Positions 2,378-49,375 of a stretch of 64,000 nucleotides of DNA are shown in pieces; positions within the stretch are counted from its first letter, which is position 1, and each line of letters opens with the position of its first letter. The DNA is from a phage. Made by a program: the position numbers and the translations under genes. Where the stretch lies: the sequence record PZ053912.1. One strand, written 5' to 3'. The notes under the pieces are model-generated. The model had not been told where the DNA came from and ran no database searches. It saw only the letters and a program-made list of their open reading frames with translations.

Positions 2378-4703
<2,326 letters not shown>

Positions 4704-4730: not shown

Positions 4731-6713
4731 ATGGCACTTCTCTCTCCGGGCGTTGAGCTCAAAGAAACTACCGTACAGAGTACTGTAGTTAATAACTCCA
4801 CTGGTACTGCTGCCCTGGCTGGAAAATTCCAATGGGGACCTGCATTCCAGATTAAACAAATCACTGATGAAGTTGCATTAGTTGATATGTTTGGTACTCC
4901 TAATACGGATACAGCAGATTATTTCATGTCTGCTATGAACTTCCTTCAATATGGTAATGACCTTCGTGTTGTACGCGCAGTTGACCGTGATACTGCTAAG
5001 AACTCATCTCCTGTAGCAGGCAATATTGAATTCACAATCTCTGCTGCTGGTAGTAACTATGCAGTTGGTGATAAAATTATCGTTAAGTATTTGACCGAAA
5101 CTGTCGAAGCAGATGGTTATGTCACTTCAGTTGATGTCGATGGTAAAATTCTTAACATTTATATCCCGACCGGTAAAATTATTGCTCGTGCAAAAGAAAT
5201 TAACGAATATCCGGCATTGGGTTCTAACTGGACCGCCGAAGTTGCCAGTTCTTCTTCTGGACTCTCTGGCGTTATTACAATTGGTTCTATCGTAACCGAT
5301 TCCGGTATTCTGTTAACTGAAGTTGAAACTTCTGAAGAAGCTATTACTTCTCTAACTTTCCAAGAATCTATTAAAAAATATGGCGTCCCAGGCGTAGTTG
5401 CTCTTTATCCTGGTGAACTTGGCGACCAGCTCGAAATTGAAATCGTATCTAAAGCAGACTACGACAAAGGTGCTTCAGCCCAGTTAAAAATTTATCCTGA
5501 TGGTGGTACTCGCGCATCTACTGCTAAAGCAATATTTGGGTATGGCCCACAAACTGATGACCAATATGCAATTATCGTTCGTCGTAACGATGCTGTAGTC
5601 CAGAGTGTAGTTCTTTCTACTAAACGCGGTGAACGCGATATTTATGGTAGTAATATCTTTATTGATGATTTCTTTGCTAAAGGCGCAAGCAATTATATTT
5701 TCGCTACTGCACAAGGTTGGCCAAAAGGTTTCTCTGGCGTAATCAAACTGGGTGGTGGCTTATCATCTAATGAAACGGTTGACGCTGGTGATTTAATGGA
5801 AGCTTGGGATTTGTTTGCTGACCGCGAATCTGTTAATGCGCAGTTGTTTATTGCCGGTTCTTGTGCAGGTGAATCTTTAGAAGTTGCTTCTACAGTTCAG
5901 AAACATGTTGTAGCAATTGGTGATTCTCGCCAAGATTGCTTGGTTCTTTGCTCACCGCCACGTGCAACTATAGTCGGTATTCCTGTTAATCGTGCAGTTG
6001 ATAATCTGGTTGATTGGCGTACTGCGTCAGGAACTTACACTGATAATAACTTTAATGTAAGTTCTACTTATGCTGCTATTGACGGTAACTATAAATATCA
6101 ATATGACAAATATAATGACGTGAATCGTTGGGTTCCATTAGCTGCTGATATTGCTGGTCTTTGTGCTCGCACAGACAATATTTCTCAGCCTTGGATGTCT
6201 CCTGCCGGTTATAACCGTGGACAGATTCTTAACGTTATTAAGCTTGCAATTGAAACTCGTCAACCACAGCGTGATCGTTTGTATCAGGAAGCTATTAACC
6301 CTGTTACTGGTACAGGTGGTGATGGGTATGTTCTGTATGGTGATAAAACTGCCACTTCTGTTCCTTCACCATTTGACCGTATTAACGTTCGTCGTTTGTT
6401 CAATATGGTTAAAACGAACATTGGTTCAGCATCTAAATATCGCCTGTTTGAATTGAACAACGCATTTACCCGTTCTTCTTTCCGTACAGAGACTTCTCAA
6501 TATCTACAGGGTATTAAAGCTCTCGGTGGTGTATATAACTTTAAAGTTGTTTGTGATACTACCAATAACACGCCAGCAGTTATCGACCGTAATGAATTTG
6601 TAGCTACTTTCTACTTACAACCTGCCCGCTCGATAAATTATATTACGTTGAACTTTGTAGCAACAGCAACTGGTGCCGATTTCGACGAACTGATTGGTGC
6701 TGTAGGTGGTTAA
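4731..6713 (+). CDS. 18: tail sheath protein gp18
   Basis: 660 aa (T4 gp18 659 aa); starts MALLSPGVELKETT; preceded by TATAAATA late promoter. Confidence 0.95.
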   Translation: MALLSPGVELKETTVQSTVVNNSTGTAALAGKFQWGPAFQIKQITDEVALVDMFGTPNTDTADYFMSAMNFLQYGNDLRVVRAVDRDTAKNSSPVAGNIEFTISAAGSNYAVGDKIIVKYLTETVEADGYVTSVDVDGKILNIYIPTGKIIARAKEINEYPALGSNWTAEVASSSSGLSGVITIGSIVTDSGILLTEVETSEEAITSLTFQESIKKYGVPGVVALYPGELGDQLEIEIVSKADYDKGASAQLKIYPDGGTRASTAKAIFGYGPQTDDQYAIIVRRNDAVVQSVVLSTKRGERDIYGSNIFIDDFFAKGASNYIFATAQGWPKGFSGVIKLGGGLSSNETVDAGDLMEAWDLFADRESVNAQLFIAGSCAGESLEVASTVQKHVVAIGDSRQDCLVLCSPPRATIVGIPVNRAVDNLVDWRTASGTYTDNNFNVSSTYAAIDGNYKYQYDKYNDVNRWVPLAADIAGLCARTDNISQPWMSPAGYNRGQILNVIKLAIETRQPQRDRLYQEAINPVTGTGGDGYVLYGDKTATSVPSPFDRINVRRLFNMVKTNIGSASKYRLFELNNAFTRSSFRTETSQYLQGIKALGGVYNFKVVCDTTNNTPAVIDRNEFVATFYLQPARSINYITLNFVATATGADFDELIGAVGG

Positions 6714-44214: not shown

Positions 44215-44244
44215 ATTGTACCACAATCCTTGTGGCATGTAAAC
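44215..44244 (-). promoter_or_regulatory. early-type promoter (GTTTAC-N18-TACAAT) upstream of rnlA
   Basis: Motif on minus strand; spacer contains palindrome CCACAAGGATTGTGG. Confidence 0.4.
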
Positions 44245-44654
44245 TACTTTTTCTTATGTTGGATATTCCAAGGCGGGTTGAACTTTTTGATAAAAAGCGG
44301 TTCTTCAAGGTCCATTGTTGCGATGGTCATTGAACCAAGTTCGTTGGTGACTGAAAGGTCAAAACATTGGCGGGCCCAGAATTCAACCTTTTTGCCTTGC
44401 ATTAAGGCATCCAAAATCATAAGTGATTTTCTTGAATCTGAAGTCTGGTCTTTTCGATTTATGGCTGTTCGATAATAGTTAATGCGTTTCTTTAAATTCT
44501 TGGTTTTACCAATATACACAAGTTCGTCATCTATAGCAATAGCGTATATGACATTTTTCTTATTAGGGACATCAACTGTTTTAATTGTTGCATCTTCTAA
44601 TAGCTCCAATTCTGTATATTTAATAAAGGAATATTCGGCGGCAATATCTTTCAT
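44244..44654 (-). CDS. denA: endonuclease II (GIY-YIG family)
   Basis: 136 aa; matches remembered T4 EndoII (YSFIKYTELEL...VIYAIAI.DELVYIGKTKNL.KRINYYR...FNPPWNIQHKKK). Confidence 0.95.
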   Translation of the reverse strand: MKDIAAEYSFIKYTELELLEDATIKTVDVPNKKNVIYAIAIDDELVYIGKTKNLKKRINYYRTAINRKDQTSDSRKSLMILDALMQGKKVEFWARQCFDLSVTNELGSMTIATMDLEEPLFIKKFNPPWNIQHKKK

Positions 44655-44680: not shown

Positions 44681-45820
44681 TTAGAAATATTTTTTGTATG
44701 AATTGATTACATTTTGGTCTACATCATTATCAATTTGTGCGACAAGATAAGAACTGATTTCAACTTCCTGAGGAGCTGCTTGAACTAAATCAGAGTTCAG
44801 ATATTCACGAATCCAAGGATACGGATGCTTGGTCGGAGCATCAGTGATTGGGCATGGCAAACCACACTGTTTCATACGAGACACAGTCAAGTAATCAACA
44901 AAAGCACACATACTCTGCGTATTGATACCTGGGCATGTACCGTCTTTAAAGAGGTGTGCGGCCCATTCCTTCTCTTGACGGTTAACTTCCATAAAAATGT
45001 CAACTGCTTCTTGTTCACATTCTTTAGCAATTTGAACCCACTCATCGCCGTCAATACCAGATTGAAGTTGACGAATAATGTACTGAGTACCCTTGAGGTG
45101 GAGTTGTTCGTCACGAGCAATGAACTTCATAATCTTTGCATTACCTTCCATGATTTCCATATTTTTATGGAAGTTGAAAGTACATGCAAATGATACGTAA
45201 AAACGAATAGCTTCCAGAGCGTTGATTACATGCAGACAGAGGTAAAGAGAACGCATTAGTTCGTATTTAGCCTGTTTTACGCCTTCGCTAAACTCGTGAT
45301 ATTCTTCTAAAGCATTCTGGTAAAGGCGAGTCTTGACTAGAACATCATCGTAATATTTACCTATTGATTCAGCTCGTTTCATGATTGCTTCGTCTAATAC
45401 AATTTCATCAAATACCTTAGATGGATCCGTATAAAGATTTCGCATAATATGAGTATACGAACGAGAGTGAATAGTTTCACTGAATGTCCATGTTGCAACC
45501 CACGTATCTAATGAAGGGTCGGAAATCAGTGCCATAAGTACCGCAGATGGGGCCCTGCCTTGGATAGAATCTAATAATGATTGATACTTAAGATTGTTTG
45601 TAAAGATGTCCTGTTGGAACTGAGGAAGCTTATTGAACTGCGCAGAGTCCAACATCAAGTTTACCTCTTCTGGGCGCCAAAAAAACGATAATTGCTTTTC
45701 GGTCAAATCTTCAAAAACTTTATGGCGTTGAATATCATAACGCGCAATACCAAGACCAGAACCAAAGAACATCGGTTCATTCAAAACATCAACTTGTTGT
45801 GTGTTAAAAACTGTACTCAT
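44681..45820 (-). CDS. nrdB: ribonucleotide reductase small subunit NrdB (uninterrupted)
   Basis: 379 aa from ATG at 45820 (MSTVFNTQQVDVLNEPMFFGSGLG); continuous reading frame; the track start 12 nt upstream is a GTG. Confidence 0.95.
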   Translation of the reverse strand: MSTVFNTQQVDVLNEPMFFGSGLGIARYDIQRHKVFEDLTEKQLSFFWRPEEVNLMLDSAQFNKLPQFQQDIFTNNLKYQSLLDSIQGRAPSAVLMALISDPSLDTWVATWTFSETIHSRSYTHIMRNLYTDPSKVFDEIVLDEAIMKRAESIGKYYDDVLVKTRLYQNALEEYHEFSEGVKQAKYELMRSLYLCLHVINALEAIRFYVSFACTFNFHKNMEIMEGNAKIMKFIARDEQLHLKGTQYIIRQLQSGIDGDEWVQIAKECEQEAVDIFMEVNRQEKEWAAHLFKDGTCPGINTQSMCAFVDYLTVSRMKQCGLPCPITDAPTKHPYPWIREYLNSDLVQAAPQEVEISSYLVAQIDNDVDQNVINSYKKYF

Positions 45821-45872
45821 TATATTTCTCACTTAGTTTAACTCATCCATGAGTAAATTATAATCAAAAGTC

Positions 45873-46862
45873 TTAAAGCTTACAAGCAGAACAATCTTCA
45901 GCTTTAGGTGTTTCTAATTCATAGTCATCTGTACCTGACCCATCACGAGTGTTATGATAGTAGAGGTTTTTTCCGCCAAAGTACCAGAAGTAAAGTAGAT
46001 CGTCAAGCATTACTGACATTGGTACTTTACCTTTCTCAAATACTGCAGGGTCATAGTAAGTATTAGCAGAAGCAGATTGGCACACCCATTTCAACATGAT
46101 AGCAACTTGGGTCAAATAAGGTTTATTACCTTTCTTGGCAAGTTTCCACGCGTAGTCGTAAAGACTCATGTTATGTTCTATATTAGGAACAACCTGACGG
46201 AAGTTGCCTTCTTTAGATTCTTTAATACTTACTGGACCGCGCGGTGGCTCAATCCCGTTTGTAGAGTTTGATACTTGACTGCTTGACTCGCAAGGCATGA
46301 GTGCAGACAACGTTGAGTTACGAATTCCATGTTCTTTGAGTTCAGCTCGAAGTTCTTCCCAGTCACAGACGTAGTTCGGGGCTGCGATTTGGTCAATCTT
46401 TTTATTGTACCAGTCGATAGGTAATTCGCCTCTAGACCATTTAGTGTCTGAATAATACTCGCAACATCCTTTTTCTTTGGCGAGTTTGATTGAAGCTTTG
46501 ATAAGGCCATATTGCAATCTCTCAAACAATTCATGAGTCAAATCGTTAGCGTCTTCATACGAAGCAAAGTTAGAAGCTAACCATGCAGCATAGTTCGTAA
46601 CACCAACACCAAGATTACGACGCTTTTTGGCTTTTAAAGCTTCTGGAACCGGATAATCTTGATAGTCTAACAGGTTATCAAGTGCACGTACTTGTACTTC
46701 AGCAAGTTCATTAATTTTATCTTGGTCTTGCCAATCAAATTTATCAAGAACAAAGGCAGAAAGAGTGCAGAGGCCCACTTCACCTTTGTTTTCAATAACT
46801 TGTATTGTTGTATACTCATCATCTTCGTAAAATTCATCTACAAATTCATAATCAATATTCAT
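45873..46862 (-). CDS. nrdA: ribonucleotide reductase large subunit, C-terminal piece (NrdA-b)
   Basis: 329 aa starting with own ATG; carries GEVGLCTLSAF and C-terminal ...CSACKL redox tail matching the C-terminal third of class Ia NrdA. Confidence 0.9.
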   Translation of the reverse strand: MNIDYEFVDEFYEDDEYTTIQVIENKGEVGLCTLSAFVLDKFDWQDQDKINELAEVQVRALDNLLDYQDYPVPEALKAKKRRNLGVGVTNYAAWLASNFASYEDANDLTHELFERLQYGLIKASIKLAKEKGCCEYYSDTKWSRGELPIDWYNKKIDQIAAPNYVCDWEELRAELKEHGIRNSTLSALMPCESSSQVSNSTNGIEPPRGPVSIKESKEGNFRQVVPNIEHNMSLYDYAWKLAKKGNKPYLTQVAIMLKWVCQSASANTYYDPAVFEKGKVPMSVMLDDLLYFWYFGGKNLYYHNTRDGSGTDDYELETPKAEDCSACKL

Positions 46863-47562
46863 TTAATTCTTCTACCTTTTTTCGAGATATTCCTAGAGCT
46901 TTAGATGCTCGATGTATTGATTGATATTCTATACCGTTTATTTTTACAGCAATTAAGTTATGGGGTTTTAATCCCTTTGGATGAGGTTTACTGACGTATT
47001 CTTGATTATCGTTTTCAGAGATATTATCAAGCTTTCGACACTTAAAGCCTTTATGTTGAGACCTTTTGCCTTTGCATACGGCCGACATTGCCGAAGCATT
47101 GAGTGAATGTAGTTCGCAAAATTCTCTTAGGCCTTTATGGATTTCTTCATGACCGTCTGGGAAAGTAAATACCCAAGTTGTTTGAAGTTTTTCTCTATGC
47201 TCGTCAGTTACCGGAATACCTTTGTTCCAAGCTGGTTTGCCTTTATTATTTTCAGATACAGAAATAGCCAATTTTCTTCTAAGCCACCCATGGCGTTTAT
47301 TGGTGTTCTTTCGTTCAATATTATCTTCAGAATAAACACACATCATATTAGCGGCAAATACCAATTTATGATTATCTGGATATATCTTTACTAATAATTG
47401 ATGAGCTATGTAATGCTCTTCGGGTGTCAAATCTACCAGGTTTTCCTTTGTATCAGAACCACCAATACACAGAGGTATAATATGGTGTGATTCGGTATAG
47501 CAATCTAATTTTCTGTTCTTAGCTTTAGAAATAAGGTTATTGTAAATTTTAGAATAATCCAT
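46852..47562 (-). CDS. HNH homing endonuclease (MobE-like), free-standing within nrdA
   Basis: 236 aa; HNH motif ESHHIIPLCIGGSDTKENLVDLTPEEHYIAH; own GAGGAAA RBS; stop overlaps start of nrdA C-terminal piece by 11 nt. Confidence 0.85.
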   Translation of the reverse strand: MDYSKIYNNLISKAKNRKLDCYTESHHIIPLCIGGSDTKENLVDLTPEEHYIAHQLLVKIYPDNHKLVFAANMMCVYSEDNIERKNTNKRHGWLRRKLAISVSENNKGKPAWNKGIPVTDEHREKLQTTWVFTFPDGHEEIHKGLREFCELHSLNASAMSAVCKGKRSQHKGFKCRKLDNISENDNQEYVSKPHPKGLKPHNLIAVKINGIEYQSIHRASKALGISRKKVEELNEY

Positions 47563-47607
47563 AACTTTTCCTCTTGTTATGGATTATTTATTAACGGTCT
47601 GTGTACT

Positions 47608-49032
47608 TTATTTGCTTTGAATTATACCGCCAGGATTAGCTTCATAAAACTTAGCTACATCCGACTTCTTAATTTTGATTAAACGGGTTTGTTGGCTATT
47701 CACATCATTAGTTGGAATAGCGATTTCACAACATAAGTTACTCTGACGAATTGGAGCTTTTTCGCGAATAAACGGAGTGTAGTTATTCGTGTTATCAACG
47801 AATTGTGGATAAATTCGAGCAGTGCCAGAACGTTCAGTCATGAACAATTCAAAGAGTTCTAGTGCTTTGATTCTTTTCTTTCTGATTGTTGGGTCTTTTT
47901 CAGCTTTCTCATAAAGCTCACGGAATTTATCTTGATCTTCAAAGAATGAGTAGTATAGTTCGCCTGACATTTCGTGAGGGCTAAATAAAGTAATATAATC
48001 ATTTTTACCAAGGCGTTCCATCATAAGGTCATTAATCTGAATTCCGTAGTCCATATGTCGAATACGGTTTTCATCCACGCCTTTGTTATTTTTCAGAACT
48101 AATAGGTTCTCTACTTCTAAGTGCCACATCGGATAATACGCTGTAGCAGCACCACCACGAATACCACCTTGAGAACAAGATTTTACTGCCGTTTGGAAAT
48201 GTTTCCAGAATGGAATAACACCCGTATGTCGAACTTCACCCATACCGATCTTAGAACCTTCTGCACGAAGCATACCAACGTTGATACCGATGCCAGCTCG
48301 TTTAGAAATATATTCAATAATTGATGCTGAAGTTTTGTTAATAGATTTTAACGAATCACCTGCTTCAATAACTACACAACTAGAGAACTGGCGAGTTGGA
48401 GTACGAGCACCCGCCATAATTGGGGTTGGCAATGAAACTTGATGAGTAGAAACGGCATCATAAAAACGAATAATATGTTTCAAACGGTCATGAGTTTCGT
48501 CTTGGTGTAAGGCCATACCAATAGCCATGATAGCAAACTGTGGAGTTTCATAAATCTTCCCAGTTGTTTTATCTTTAACTAGATATTTTTCTTTAAGCTG
48601 CATAGCACCGGCATAAGTCAGGTCAAAGTCTCGTTCATGTTTAATCTGTGAATCGAGATAAATGATTTCTTCTGCTGAATATTGAGACAACAGCTCAGGG
48701 TCATATTTGCCTTCATTAACACAGTAAGAAATATGGTCGATAAAAGCAGGCGGTTCAAACTGCCCGTATACATCTTTACGAAGTGCAAACATTAGTCCTT
48801 TAGCGGCGACATACTGATAATCAGGTTCTTCGACAGAAATCGAGTTAGCTGCAACTTTAATACAAATCTTCTGAATATCTTTGGTGCTCATCCCGTCGAC
48901 AAGATGGGGTTTAATTTCTTCATATAATTCATATGGGTCAATTTGTGTTCCTTCACATTGCCAAGTTAAGACTTGAATAATTTTCTGTGCATCAAAATTT
49001 TGGGATACACCACTACTCTTAGTTACTTGCAT
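47608..49032 (-). CDS. nrdA: ribonucleotide reductase large subunit, N-terminal piece (NrdA-a)
   Basis: 474 aa; ATP-cone and catalytic region through SNLCCEIAIPT, then a short non-homologous tail and stop. Confidence 0.9.
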   Translation of the reverse strand: MQVTKSSGVSQNFDAQKIIQVLTWQCEGTQIDPYELYEEIKPHLVDGMSTKDIQKICIKVAANSISVEEPDYQYVAAKGLMFALRKDVYGQFEPPAFIDHISYCVNEGKYDPELLSQYSAEEIIYLDSQIKHERDFDLTYAGAMQLKEKYLVKDKTTGKIYETPQFAIMAIGMALHQDETHDRLKHIIRFYDAVSTHQVSLPTPIMAGARTPTRQFSSCVVIEAGDSLKSINKTSASIIEYISKRAGIGINVGMLRAEGSKIGMGEVRHTGVIPFWKHFQTAVKSCSQGGIRGGAATAYYPMWHLEVENLLVLKNNKGVDENRIRHMDYGIQINDLMMERLGKNDYITLFSPHEMSGELYYSFFEDQDKFRELYEKAEKDPTIRKKRIKALELFELFMTERSGTARIYPQFVDNTNNYTPFIREKAPIRQSNLCCEIAIPTNDVNSQQTRLIKIKKSDVAKFYEANPGGIIQSK

Positions 49033-49120
49033 ATATTCCTCAGTATAGGTTGATAGACATTACTCCAAACGGGATAGTATTTATCCCGTTAATTTATTAT
49101 ACAACTTTTAAACTGAAGCG

Positions 49121-49375
49121 TTAATTATCCTCAGCAATAATTTCTTTGTATTCTTTAGGTGTCAAGACTGTGATATCGAAATAAACCAACGGTTCTTTTT
49201 CTATACCGTAACCACCACAAAATTCACGATATTCATAAATTCGTTCATGTGAATAGCAAATGAATCGTTCACCTTTAATTGTGATTTCACTATTCGGTGA
49301 AGGGATATCCAGTTCGGTAGGATTTTTCATTTCAAAAATTGTGGTGCCATATGAATTAATAAAACGTAAAATCAT
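49121..49375 (-). CDS. hypothetical protein (84 aa; nrdA.1-like position)
   Basis: ORF between td and nrdA. Confidence 0.5.
   Translation of the reverse strand: MILRFINSYGTTIFEMKNPTELDIPSPNSEITIKGERFICYSHERIYEYREFCGGYGIEKEPLVYFDITVLTPKEYKEIIAEDN

Follow-up and report, generated by a model that had tools for sequence, protein, structure and literature searches.

How can a phage keep a working ribonucleotide reductase (RNR) if the gene for its large subunit is broken within the active-site region by the gene of a homing endonuclease? The question is raised by phage sequence record PZ053912.1, of which a stretch of 64,000 nucleotides (nt), here called the window, was analyzed. On the minus strand, between positions 45873 and 49032, nrdA is found as an N-terminal open reading frame (ORF), nrdA-a, and a C-terminal ORF, nrdA-b, with an HNH endonuclease gene in between. 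In our reading, a self-contained cassette about 0.95 kb long, of the lineage found in phage Aeh1, has entered the nrdA gene of a T4-like coliphage (Mosigvirus), and the two halves of the protein assemble non-covalently; we put the probability of this at roughly 0.8. The cassette would comprise a 29-codon basic extension of nrdA-a (the a-tail), a stop codon, a 45-nt spacer, a hairpin, an I-HmuI-like HNH gene, a 28-codon acidic extension at the start of nrdA-b (the b-head), and about 20 nt of recoded exon.

Split nrdA Gene

The two pieces and the parts of the insertion between them, all on the minus strand, are listed below (lengths of proteins in amino acids, aa; pI, isoelectric point).

47608-49032, minus strand: nrdA-a, 474 aa, N-terminal part of the large subunit of class Ia RNR (ORF and Pfam)
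47698-49032, minus strand: native part of nrdA-a, residues 1-445, 98% identical to the intact allele of phage S143_2 up to ...NDVN
47611-47697, minus strand: a-tail, SQQTRLIKIKKSDVAKFYEANPGGIIQSK, 29-aa C-terminal extension, basic, pI 10.0, cassette-borne
47563-47607, minus strand: spacer between nrdA-a and the endonuclease gene, 45 nt, with a late-promoter-like motif and the 5' arm of a hairpin
46852-47562, minus strand: MobE-like HNH endonuclease gene, 236 aa (ORF, Pfam, and homology to Aeh1 MobE)
46869-46878, minus strand: Shine-Dalgarno (SD)-like purine run of nrdA-b, AAGGTAGAAG, inside the 3' end of the endonuclease ORF
45873-46862, minus strand: nrdA-b, C-terminal NrdA piece, 329 aa, starting with MNIDYEF and ending with CSACKL
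46779-46862, minus strand: b-head, MNIDYEFVDEFYEDDEYTTIQVIENKGE, 28-aa N-terminal extension, acidic, pI 4.05, cassette-borne

The native part of nrdA-a ends in ...SNLCCEIAIPTNDVN, where homology to the intact allele stops at 47698; the 29-aa tail follows, with the stop codon at 47608-47610. The endonuclease ORF ends within nrdA-b: its last 11 nt (46852-46862) are also the first of nrdA-b and so of the b-head. Each piece has its own predicted start codon and SD-like element; an SD-like element, often GAGG, precedes nrdA-b in all carriers of the cassette, and the overlap of the endonuclease gene with nrdA-b ranges from 1 to 20 nt among them.

Between them, the pieces hold the complete set of class Ia NrdA domains. 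The ATP-cone and the all-alpha domain (Ribonuc_red_lgN) are on nrdA-a, and the ten-stranded RNR barrel (Pfam PF02867) is matched from profile position 1 to 221 by piece a and from 219 to 523 by piece b, so the pieces are complementary and nothing is duplicated or lost. The motifs SSCVVIE and SNLCCEI are found in nrdA-a, and GEVGLCTLSAF (with LCTLSAF), LYYHNT, and CSACKL in nrdA-b. Both pieces align to E. coli NrdA structures, nrdA-b to residues 453-525, and all catalytic residues are kept: in E. coli NrdA numbering, the equivalents of C225, N437, C439, and E441 are on piece a, and the equivalent of C462, the YY pair, and the C-terminal Cys pair (CSAC) are on piece b. An earlier reading of the window from its letters alone (the sequence-only reading) had given the same three ORFs, coordinates, lengths, and overlap, had taken the middle ORF to be a free-standing HNH endonuclease gene, and had placed the split between active-site residues. 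All of this is borne out by the ORF listing, by the Pfam domains and the alignment to E. coli NrdA, and by the finding of no intron (Rfam) and no intein domain (Pfam).

Insertion Site

The region of the window is 98.4% identical to Escherichia phage vB_EcoM-ZQ3 (Mosigvirus). Phage S143_2, 98% identical to the window on both sides of the insertion, has an intact nrdA of 751 aa. Relative to this allele the net insertion is 904 nt, and the loop residues G/S-P-D-A alone are replaced; homology halts after ...IPTNDVN and restarts at E-[IV]-G-L-C-T-L-S-A-F. In E. coli NrdA numbering, NDVN corresponds to residues 450-453, the replaced loop to 454-457, and the restart to E458, which leaves C439 and E441 on piece a and C462 on piece b. 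The Tequatrovirus pair of a split allele (HY01) and an intact allele (BF15) gives the same boundaries. The arrangement is no artefact of assembly, since it is present in 35 phage records (28 distinct phages) and also in 7 contigs from metagenomes.

Relation to the Split Reductase of Phage Aeh1

A genes-in-pieces RNR with the order nrdA-a/mobE/nrdA-b is known from phage Aeh1 (Friedrich et al. 2007, as cited in PMC3045599; Crona et al. 2010), so that the class and its mechanism were published in 2007 and 2010; its coliphage members are uncharacterized. The sequence-only reading named Aeh1 as a comparable case, and rightly so: the endonuclease of the window shares 47.6% identity with Aeh1 MobE across 96% of its own length and is inserted at the same position. 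The gene order is the same, the ORF sizes are close (473, 237, and 323 aa in Aeh1 vs 474, 236, and 329 aa in the window), and the endonuclease ORF overlaps the start of nrdA-b in both (14 nt in Aeh1). Insertion is at the same residue, in the NrdA loop between the equivalents of C439/E441 and C462, and the junctions align residue for residue. The basic a-tail and the acidic b-head are homologous, and in both phages a hairpin lies over the translation start of the endonuclease, adjoining a late-promoter motif. By every sequence-level criterion, the window cassette is of the same lineage as the Aeh1 element.

There are also differences. Aeh1 is a Cinqassovirus of Aeromonas, whereas the carriers described here are E. 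coli phages of the genera Mosigvirus and Tequatrovirus. The distal part of the a-tail is unrelated between the two, and the hairpin in the window pairs the start codon and first codons, not the SD element. The Aeh1 insertion was described as a unique transposition, whereas the coliphages have intact sister alleles at 98% identity, which makes the coliphage insertion demonstrably recent and polymorphic. Finally, biochemistry is available for the Aeh1 enzyme, and the coliphage version is known from its sequence.

Peptide Tails

For Aeh1, deletion of the tails lowered activity about 2000-fold and impaired assembly of the (a/b)2 large subunit, and the tails remain in the mature enzyme, in which two polypeptides are found (PMC3045599). 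Database searches with the Aeh1 tails gave no matches at that time (Crona et al. 2010, PMC3045599), and the sequence-only reading had called the tail of the N-terminal piece of the window unrelated. This part of it did not stand: the a-tail and the b-head are both homologous to the Aeh1 tails and are conserved in seven more carriers. The a-tail core L[IVF]K[IV][KR]K[SKC][DE][IV]xxF is kept in Aeh1 and the seven metagenomic carriers (LIKIKKSDVAKF in the window aligned with LFKVKKSEVDKF in Aeh1), and the b-head core YE.V.EFYED[DE]EYTT[ILV][QE][VI] in Aeh1 and all carriers (YEDDEYTTIQV in the window and YEDEEYTTVEI in Aeh1). The charge asymmetry of the tails is also the same in Aeh1.

Across a series of homologues, the identity of the b-head to that of the window is 72, 72, 58, 65, 48, 65, 48, and 42%, and the identity of the endonuclease, in the same order, is 68, 66, 61, 56, 54, 53, 56, and 47%; in these comparisons b-head identity tracks or exceeds endonuclease identity. 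Between the two coliphage allele classes described below, the ratio of nonsynonymous to synonymous substitution rates (dN/dS) of the b-head is about 0.05. On these alignments, we regard the tails as belonging to the cassette and conserved with it, with the Aeh1 tails as their homologues, and not as random leftovers. The alternating hydrophobic and charged residues of the cores suggest two strands that extend a native hairpin of the protein, and by analogy with Aeh1 it is probably the tails brought by the cassette that let the halves reassemble.

Scar alleles, in which the endonuclease would be lost and the tails fused in frame, were looked for in two ways, both of low power: a junction-only query gave two short fragments only, and an exhaustive HMMER scan, run with residues 1-60 of NrdA-b, gave nothing informative. 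A tblastn search of phages with the b-head did not separate split from intact alleles, the acidic head being masked as low-complexity sequence.

Mobility of the Cassette

Two further features, both on the minus strand, concern the movement of the cassette.

46762-47709, minus strand: mobile unit, its limits taken from lateral transfer; 948 nt that differ from Tequatrovirus HY01 at 1 position
46761-46778, minus strand: recoded exon tract, codons V-G-L-C-T-L, from three-way and eight-way comparisons, about 20 nt, cassette-linked

The nrdA flanks of the 948-nt block are 22.7% divergent from HY01 (binomial P of about 4e-104). We read the cassette from this comparison as a discrete mobile unit of about 0.95 kb, and its transfer between the genera as recent. 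Presence or absence of the cassette is polymorphic among phages that are 98% identical, and both allele classes of the endonuclease are found in Mosigvirus and Tequatrovirus backbones alike. The first tail codon in the window encodes Ser, which is native to Tequatrovirus, whereas Mosigvirus has Gly, which is kept in phage JM17; the donor was therefore probably of the Tequatrovirus type, and the co-conversion tract on the left probably shorter than 15 nt.

On the other side of the insertion, all split alleles read GAA GTG GGS CTY TGY ACY CTY, and the intact alleles of both genera read GAA ATT GGW TTR TGY ACA TTR; 3' of this tract the sequence is back to the backbone type. The co-conversion tracts are thus very short, and they are reproducible. 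T4 MobE is a nicking enzyme whose own genome is protected by target polymorphisms (PMC2790892). The recoded tract is what a target-destroying tract linked to the cassette would look like, and is consistent with a target nearby. The population signature of homing, that is, presence or absence at one site, lateral transfer, and co-conversion, is present.

Beyond the recoded tract, at 46740-46761 of the window, nrdA-b differs by silent substitutions (TCTGCCTTTGTTCTTGAT) both from the intact allele of the same genus and from HY01. They hint at a third parental sequence in the history of co-conversion.

Endonuclease

The endonuclease has an N-terminal HNH motif, a central I-HmuI/NUMOD-like region, and a C-terminal helix-turn-helix-like region. 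It matches Pfam PF22083 with 32.2 bits (cut-off 27), and its HNH core, HHIIPLCIGGSDTKENLVDLTPEEHYIAH, aligns to the HNH domain of McrA. Among 17 endonuclease homologues, H26, H27, and N41 do not vary, and variation at H50 and H54 is slight. The AlphaFold2 (AF2) model of the protein has a mean confidence (pLDDT) of 88.3, and the sole significant match of the model in the PDB is I-HmuI, 1U3E (E 1.2e-4, probability 1.0, whole target aligned). Among sequenced phages, the closest full-length relative outside its own group is Aeh1 MobE. Similarity to the T4-type mobE products, encoded between nrdA and nrdB, is limited to about the first 100-140 residues, which places the nrdA-internal endonucleases in a separate lineage.

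The coliphage endonucleases fall into two allele classes, with identities of at least 96% and of about 89-90%. They differ almost solely in a central block of about 250 nt (46993-47232 in the window) that is about 28% divergent and encodes residues of about 111-193, the NUMOD/I-HmuI-like DNA-binding region; confined in this way, the differences mark the allele classes as mosaics. This divergence suggests swapping of modules within the endonuclease, possibly with retargeting. The ORF is intact in 35 of 35 records and its dN/dS between alleles is about 0.2, values that we read as purifying selection. An intermediate allele is found in phage F2, whose differences are confined to the first 50 nt of the central block.

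The cassette might instead be a fixed relic, with an endonuclease that no longer cuts, spread by descent and ordinary recombination only. Activity of the endonuclease in this clade is something that we only infer, its match to the Pfam HNH model is below threshold, and just about 4% of the related phage records (35, against about 830 with a similar nrdA) carry the cassette, all of which a relic would accommodate. A relic is nevertheless quite improbable, since it would have to explain a near-identical 948-nt block within strongly diverged flanks across genera, co-conversion tracts that are short and reproducible, purifying selection on an endonuclease whose HNH residues are invariant or nearly so, and the occurrence of both allele classes in both backbones.

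Full-length homologues with 34-36% identity adjoin uvsW/DNA helicase genes in many T4-like coliphages and in Yersinia phages, in records such as AV121, HY03, vB_EcoM-G28, and PYPS2T. By sequence they form a related lineage of endonucleases that has its home site elsewhere.

Fate of the Interrupted Gene

If the insertion had inactivated a dispensable gene, with the host RNR supplying deoxynucleotides, the two pieces would be non-functional remnants. The aerobic RNR of phages is not essential in laboratory hosts, and both pieces are unannotated in the GenBank record of HY01. Against this stand both ORFs, which are intact and unchanged in length in the 28 phages and 7 metagenomic contigs and retain the catalytic residues; the dN/dS of 0.01-0.03 between the two split Mosigvirus nrdA alleles, a value that for the nrdA cores largely reflects their history before the insertion; the conservation of the tails and of the SD element and start codon of nrdA-b while endonuclease identity falls to 47-68%; and the full activity of the homologous Aeh1 enzyme (PMC3045599). 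We find the remnant explanation very doubtful.

The tails might also be the halves of a (mini) split intein, with trans protein splicing joining NrdA-a to NrdA-b. Split inteins in nrdA with a free-standing endonuclease gene between the halves do exist (PMC2677866), an origin from a degenerate intein was raised as a possibility by Crona et al. (PMC3045599), the first residue of the tail is Ser, and in one metagenomic carrier, L022, a true intein is located some 10 residues upstream of the insertion. However, neither piece has a HINT or intein match in Pfam, by the same procedure that found the L022 intein. The tails total 57 aa, compared with about 130 aa for a HINT domain; the b-head ends in ...ENKGE-V without the His-Asn and Cys/Ser/Thr junction seen in L022 (VHN|C); and in Aeh1 the mature proteins still have their tails (PMC3045599). 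We give splicing of this kind very little credence.

A group I intron carrying the endonuclease ORF, with RNA splicing restoring nrdA as in T4 td, nrdB, and nrdD, can practically be set aside: intron-borne endonucleases are common in the nucleotide-metabolism genes of T4-like phages (PMC2988022, PMC3653736) and an insert in a conserved active-site region is typical of introns, but a search for the intron core across the insert gave no Intron_gpI match in 45700-49200 (Rfam, E up to 10), the flanking pieces have stop or start codons of their own, the tails are conserved as protein across carriers with diverged DNA, and both Aeh1 polypeptides, tails included, are in the mature enzyme (PMC3045599). 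An Rfam scan of the 64-kb window gave no family at the gathering threshold, and hence no group I intron in td or nrdB, unlike in T4, and no tRNA or any other curated RNA. That td (286 aa) and nrdB (379 aa from its ATG) are uninterrupted, as the sequence-only reading had it, also follows from their whole ORFs.

Possible Control of Endonuclease Expression

Two elements on the minus strand lie around the start of the endonuclease gene, one of them in the spacer and the other reaching from the spacer into the gene.

47553-47588, minus strand: RNA hairpin, predicted fold, perfect 13-bp stem AAUAAUCCAUAAC / GUUAUGGAUUAUU
47585-47592, minus strand: T4-late-promoter-like motif AATAAATA, abutting the 5' arm of the hairpin, in the 45-nt spacer

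The loop of the hairpin holds the SD sequence GAGG, and its 3' arm holds the AUG of the endonuclease (47560-47562). Equivalent hairpins are present in Aeh1 and every other carrier, and RNAalifold on six aligned carriers gave 12 conserved pairs; at 3 of these both partners have changed in a compensatory way (for example, ATGGAT/ATCCAT vs ATGAAC/GTTCAT). The exact late-promoter sequence, TATAAATA, is found at the corresponding place in carriers L019, L021, and L022. Because the motif abuts the 5' arm, a late transcript would start inside the arm and would be without the hairpin. The same logic of hairpin and late promoter has been shown experimentally for Aeh1 mobE (Gibb and Edgell, as summarized in PMC2988022) and for I-TevI (PMC2988022). 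By analogy, the hairpin would hold translation of the endonuclease off on early and middle transcripts of the operon, and late transcripts starting inside the 5' arm would release it; such control may operate in this phage as well.

Read-through from nrdA-a into the endonuclease gene was considered and rejected. The two are in the same frame in the window, but two in-frame TAA codons lie between them, and the spacers of other carriers are not multiples of three.

Proposed Mechanism

We propose that, in a co-infected cell, the endonuclease would nick or cut the uninterrupted nrdA of a related phage near the loop, and that repair would copy the cassette together with a few flanking bases. The recoded tract would keep carriers from being cut. 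This model of spread draws on the sequence patterns and on the genetics of T4 MobE. In the protein, the oppositely charged tails would promote formation of an (a/b)2 large subunit able to act together with NrdB2, and a composite active site would form across two polypeptides. The split Aeh1 holoenzyme is fully active (PMC3045599).

Several points weigh against this proposal. Enzyme activity, the function of the tails, and cleavage by the endonuclease are all carried over from Aeh1 and T4, and may differ here. Phage nrd genes are dispensable in the laboratory, where the host RNR compensates, so that selection on the split enzyme could be weak, and the low dN/dS of the nrdA cores adds little, for the reason given above. 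The free-standing endonucleases of T4 can cut at some distance from their own genes. The Pfam HNH model scores 17.9 bits on the endonuclease, below its cut-off of 21.4, and the window motif AATAAATA is one mismatch away from the T4 late consensus. The invariance of tails and spacer among coliphage alleles (0 of 135 positions differ between allele classes) is no independent evidence of selection, because the alleles are mosaics whose differences are confined to the 250-nt central block; we dropped it as an argument.

A wider and more speculative view, which we consider unlikely, is that endonuclease, tails, hairpin, and recoded tract form an ancient mobile module for splitting and reassembly; in its boldest version, the tails would descend from a split intein that lost splicing and kept association. 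If true, such a module would be a third way, besides introns and inteins, to neutralize an insertion into an active site. If the descent from a split intein were also true, the tails would be portable and could reassemble other proteins cut at a surface loop.

Comparison with Other Systems

The T4 mobE gene lies between nrdA and nrdB, as stated in the sequence-only reading (Wilson and Edgell 2009, PMC2790892). Like the window gene it encodes an N-terminal HNH domain and is located in the nrd operon, and it homes with co-conversion. Unlike it, T4 mobE is intergenic, splits nothing, targets nrdB, and has no tails (PMC2790892). T4 mobA splits a gene, that of the topoisomerase large subunit, into two (genes 39 and 60): this HNH endonuclease of the Mob family also lies inside the active-site domain of an essential enzyme, and the two products have C- and N-terminal extensions and reassemble (PMC3045599; bioRxiv 10.1101/2022.08.31.505936). 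The target gene is different, however, mobA comes with a 50-nt translational bypass, and similarity of tail sequences was not reported.

In the fractured genes with split inteins, a gene, often nrdA, is likewise found as two ORFs around a free-standing endonuclease gene, with charge as the presumed force that brings the fragments together (Dassa et al. 2009, PMC2677866). There, HINT-mediated trans-splicing yields one polypeptide, whereas the window has no detectable HINT domain and the Aeh1 tails stay in the proteins. T4 I-TevI (td) and I-TevIII (nrdB) are also selfish endonucleases in nucleotide-metabolism genes, limited to late translation by a hairpin and a late promoter (PMC2988022), but they are neutralized by RNA self-splicing, and no intron was found in the insert of the window.

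For Aeh1, the split reductase was described as the outcome of a single transposition, with tails that had no database matches (PMC3045599), and "several other" nrdA-internal MobE insertions with conserved terminal extensions have been mentioned as an unpublished observation (bioRxiv 10.1101/2022.08.31.505936). What is new here is the homology of the tails across the lineage, the exact limits of the mobile unit, the recent transfer between genera, the covariation in the hairpin, and the recoded exon linked to the cassette. The same cassette, tails included, now circulates in T4-like phages of E. coli, Shigella, Yersinia, and Salmonella and in uncultured relatives, which supports the view that tails and endonuclease are inherited together, the tails being the element's own means of making good the harm done by the endonuclease. 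The system is thereby moved into the most tractable phage-host pair, for which nature provides sister phages that are 98% identical and lack the cassette. In practical terms the gain is modest: annotators should not treat the nrdA pieces as pseudogenes, as was effectively done for HY01.

Distribution and Neighboring Genes

The 28 distinct carrier phages infect E. coli, Shigella, Yersinia, and Salmonella. In a large protein collection, full-length homologues of the endonuclease form a graded series with identities between 67% and 51%, which bridges the window protein and Aeh1 MobE, and all seven for which contigs were examined lie inside a split nrdA with conserved tails. In these metagenomic carriers NrdA-a has 474-485 aa (614 in L022) and NrdA-b 324-328 aa, and the split nrdA is located downstream of td and upstream of nrdB. 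In a scan of IMG/VR with the endonuclease alignment, Aeh1 was the only split carrier; the other matches were of the classic nrdA-HNH-nrdB arrangement and covered the N-terminal domain only.

In the carrier records of GenBank, annotators already label the nrdA pieces. In the HY01 record (KF925357.1), the endonuclease is annotated and the nrdA pieces at 2986-4410 and 5156-6145 are not; the locus tags HY01_0220 and HY01_0218 are skipped, so the split was probably taken for a pseudogene. In L022 (ENA ERZ14207129), the greater length of NrdA-a (707-2551) is due to the genuine intein at the catalytic Cys (PT-HINT/Intein_splicing, ...VHN|CLEIAIPT), which places two selfish elements within about 30 nt of coding sequence.

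On the minus strand of the window, the gene order is frd, td, a DUF5496 ORF, nrdA-a, the HNH gene, nrdA-b, nrdB, and denA. The spacer between nrdA-b and nrdB is 52 nt and holds no gene. The NrdB of the window is 13 residues shorter than that of ZQ3 and HY01 (392 aa) in a variable surface segment (about 45240-45325), where it matches S143_2, so nrdB is mosaic among Mosigviruses that are otherwise 98% identical. The 136-aa GIY-YIG ORF downstream of nrdB (44244-44654) is denA (endonuclease II), by synteny with annotated relatives, and not another homing endonuclease. In some carriers a second ORF of 213-258 aa lies between nrdA-b and nrdB (L018:4269-4910, with NUMOD3; L021:2219-2995; L022:4329-5093), at the classic position of T4 mobE, so both sites can be occupied at once. 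In L019, a gene for a GIY-YIG endonuclease with NUMOD3 (311-1039) separates td from nrdA-a and is encoded on the opposite strand, which again marks the td-nrdA-nrdB region as one where homing endonucleases tend to gather.

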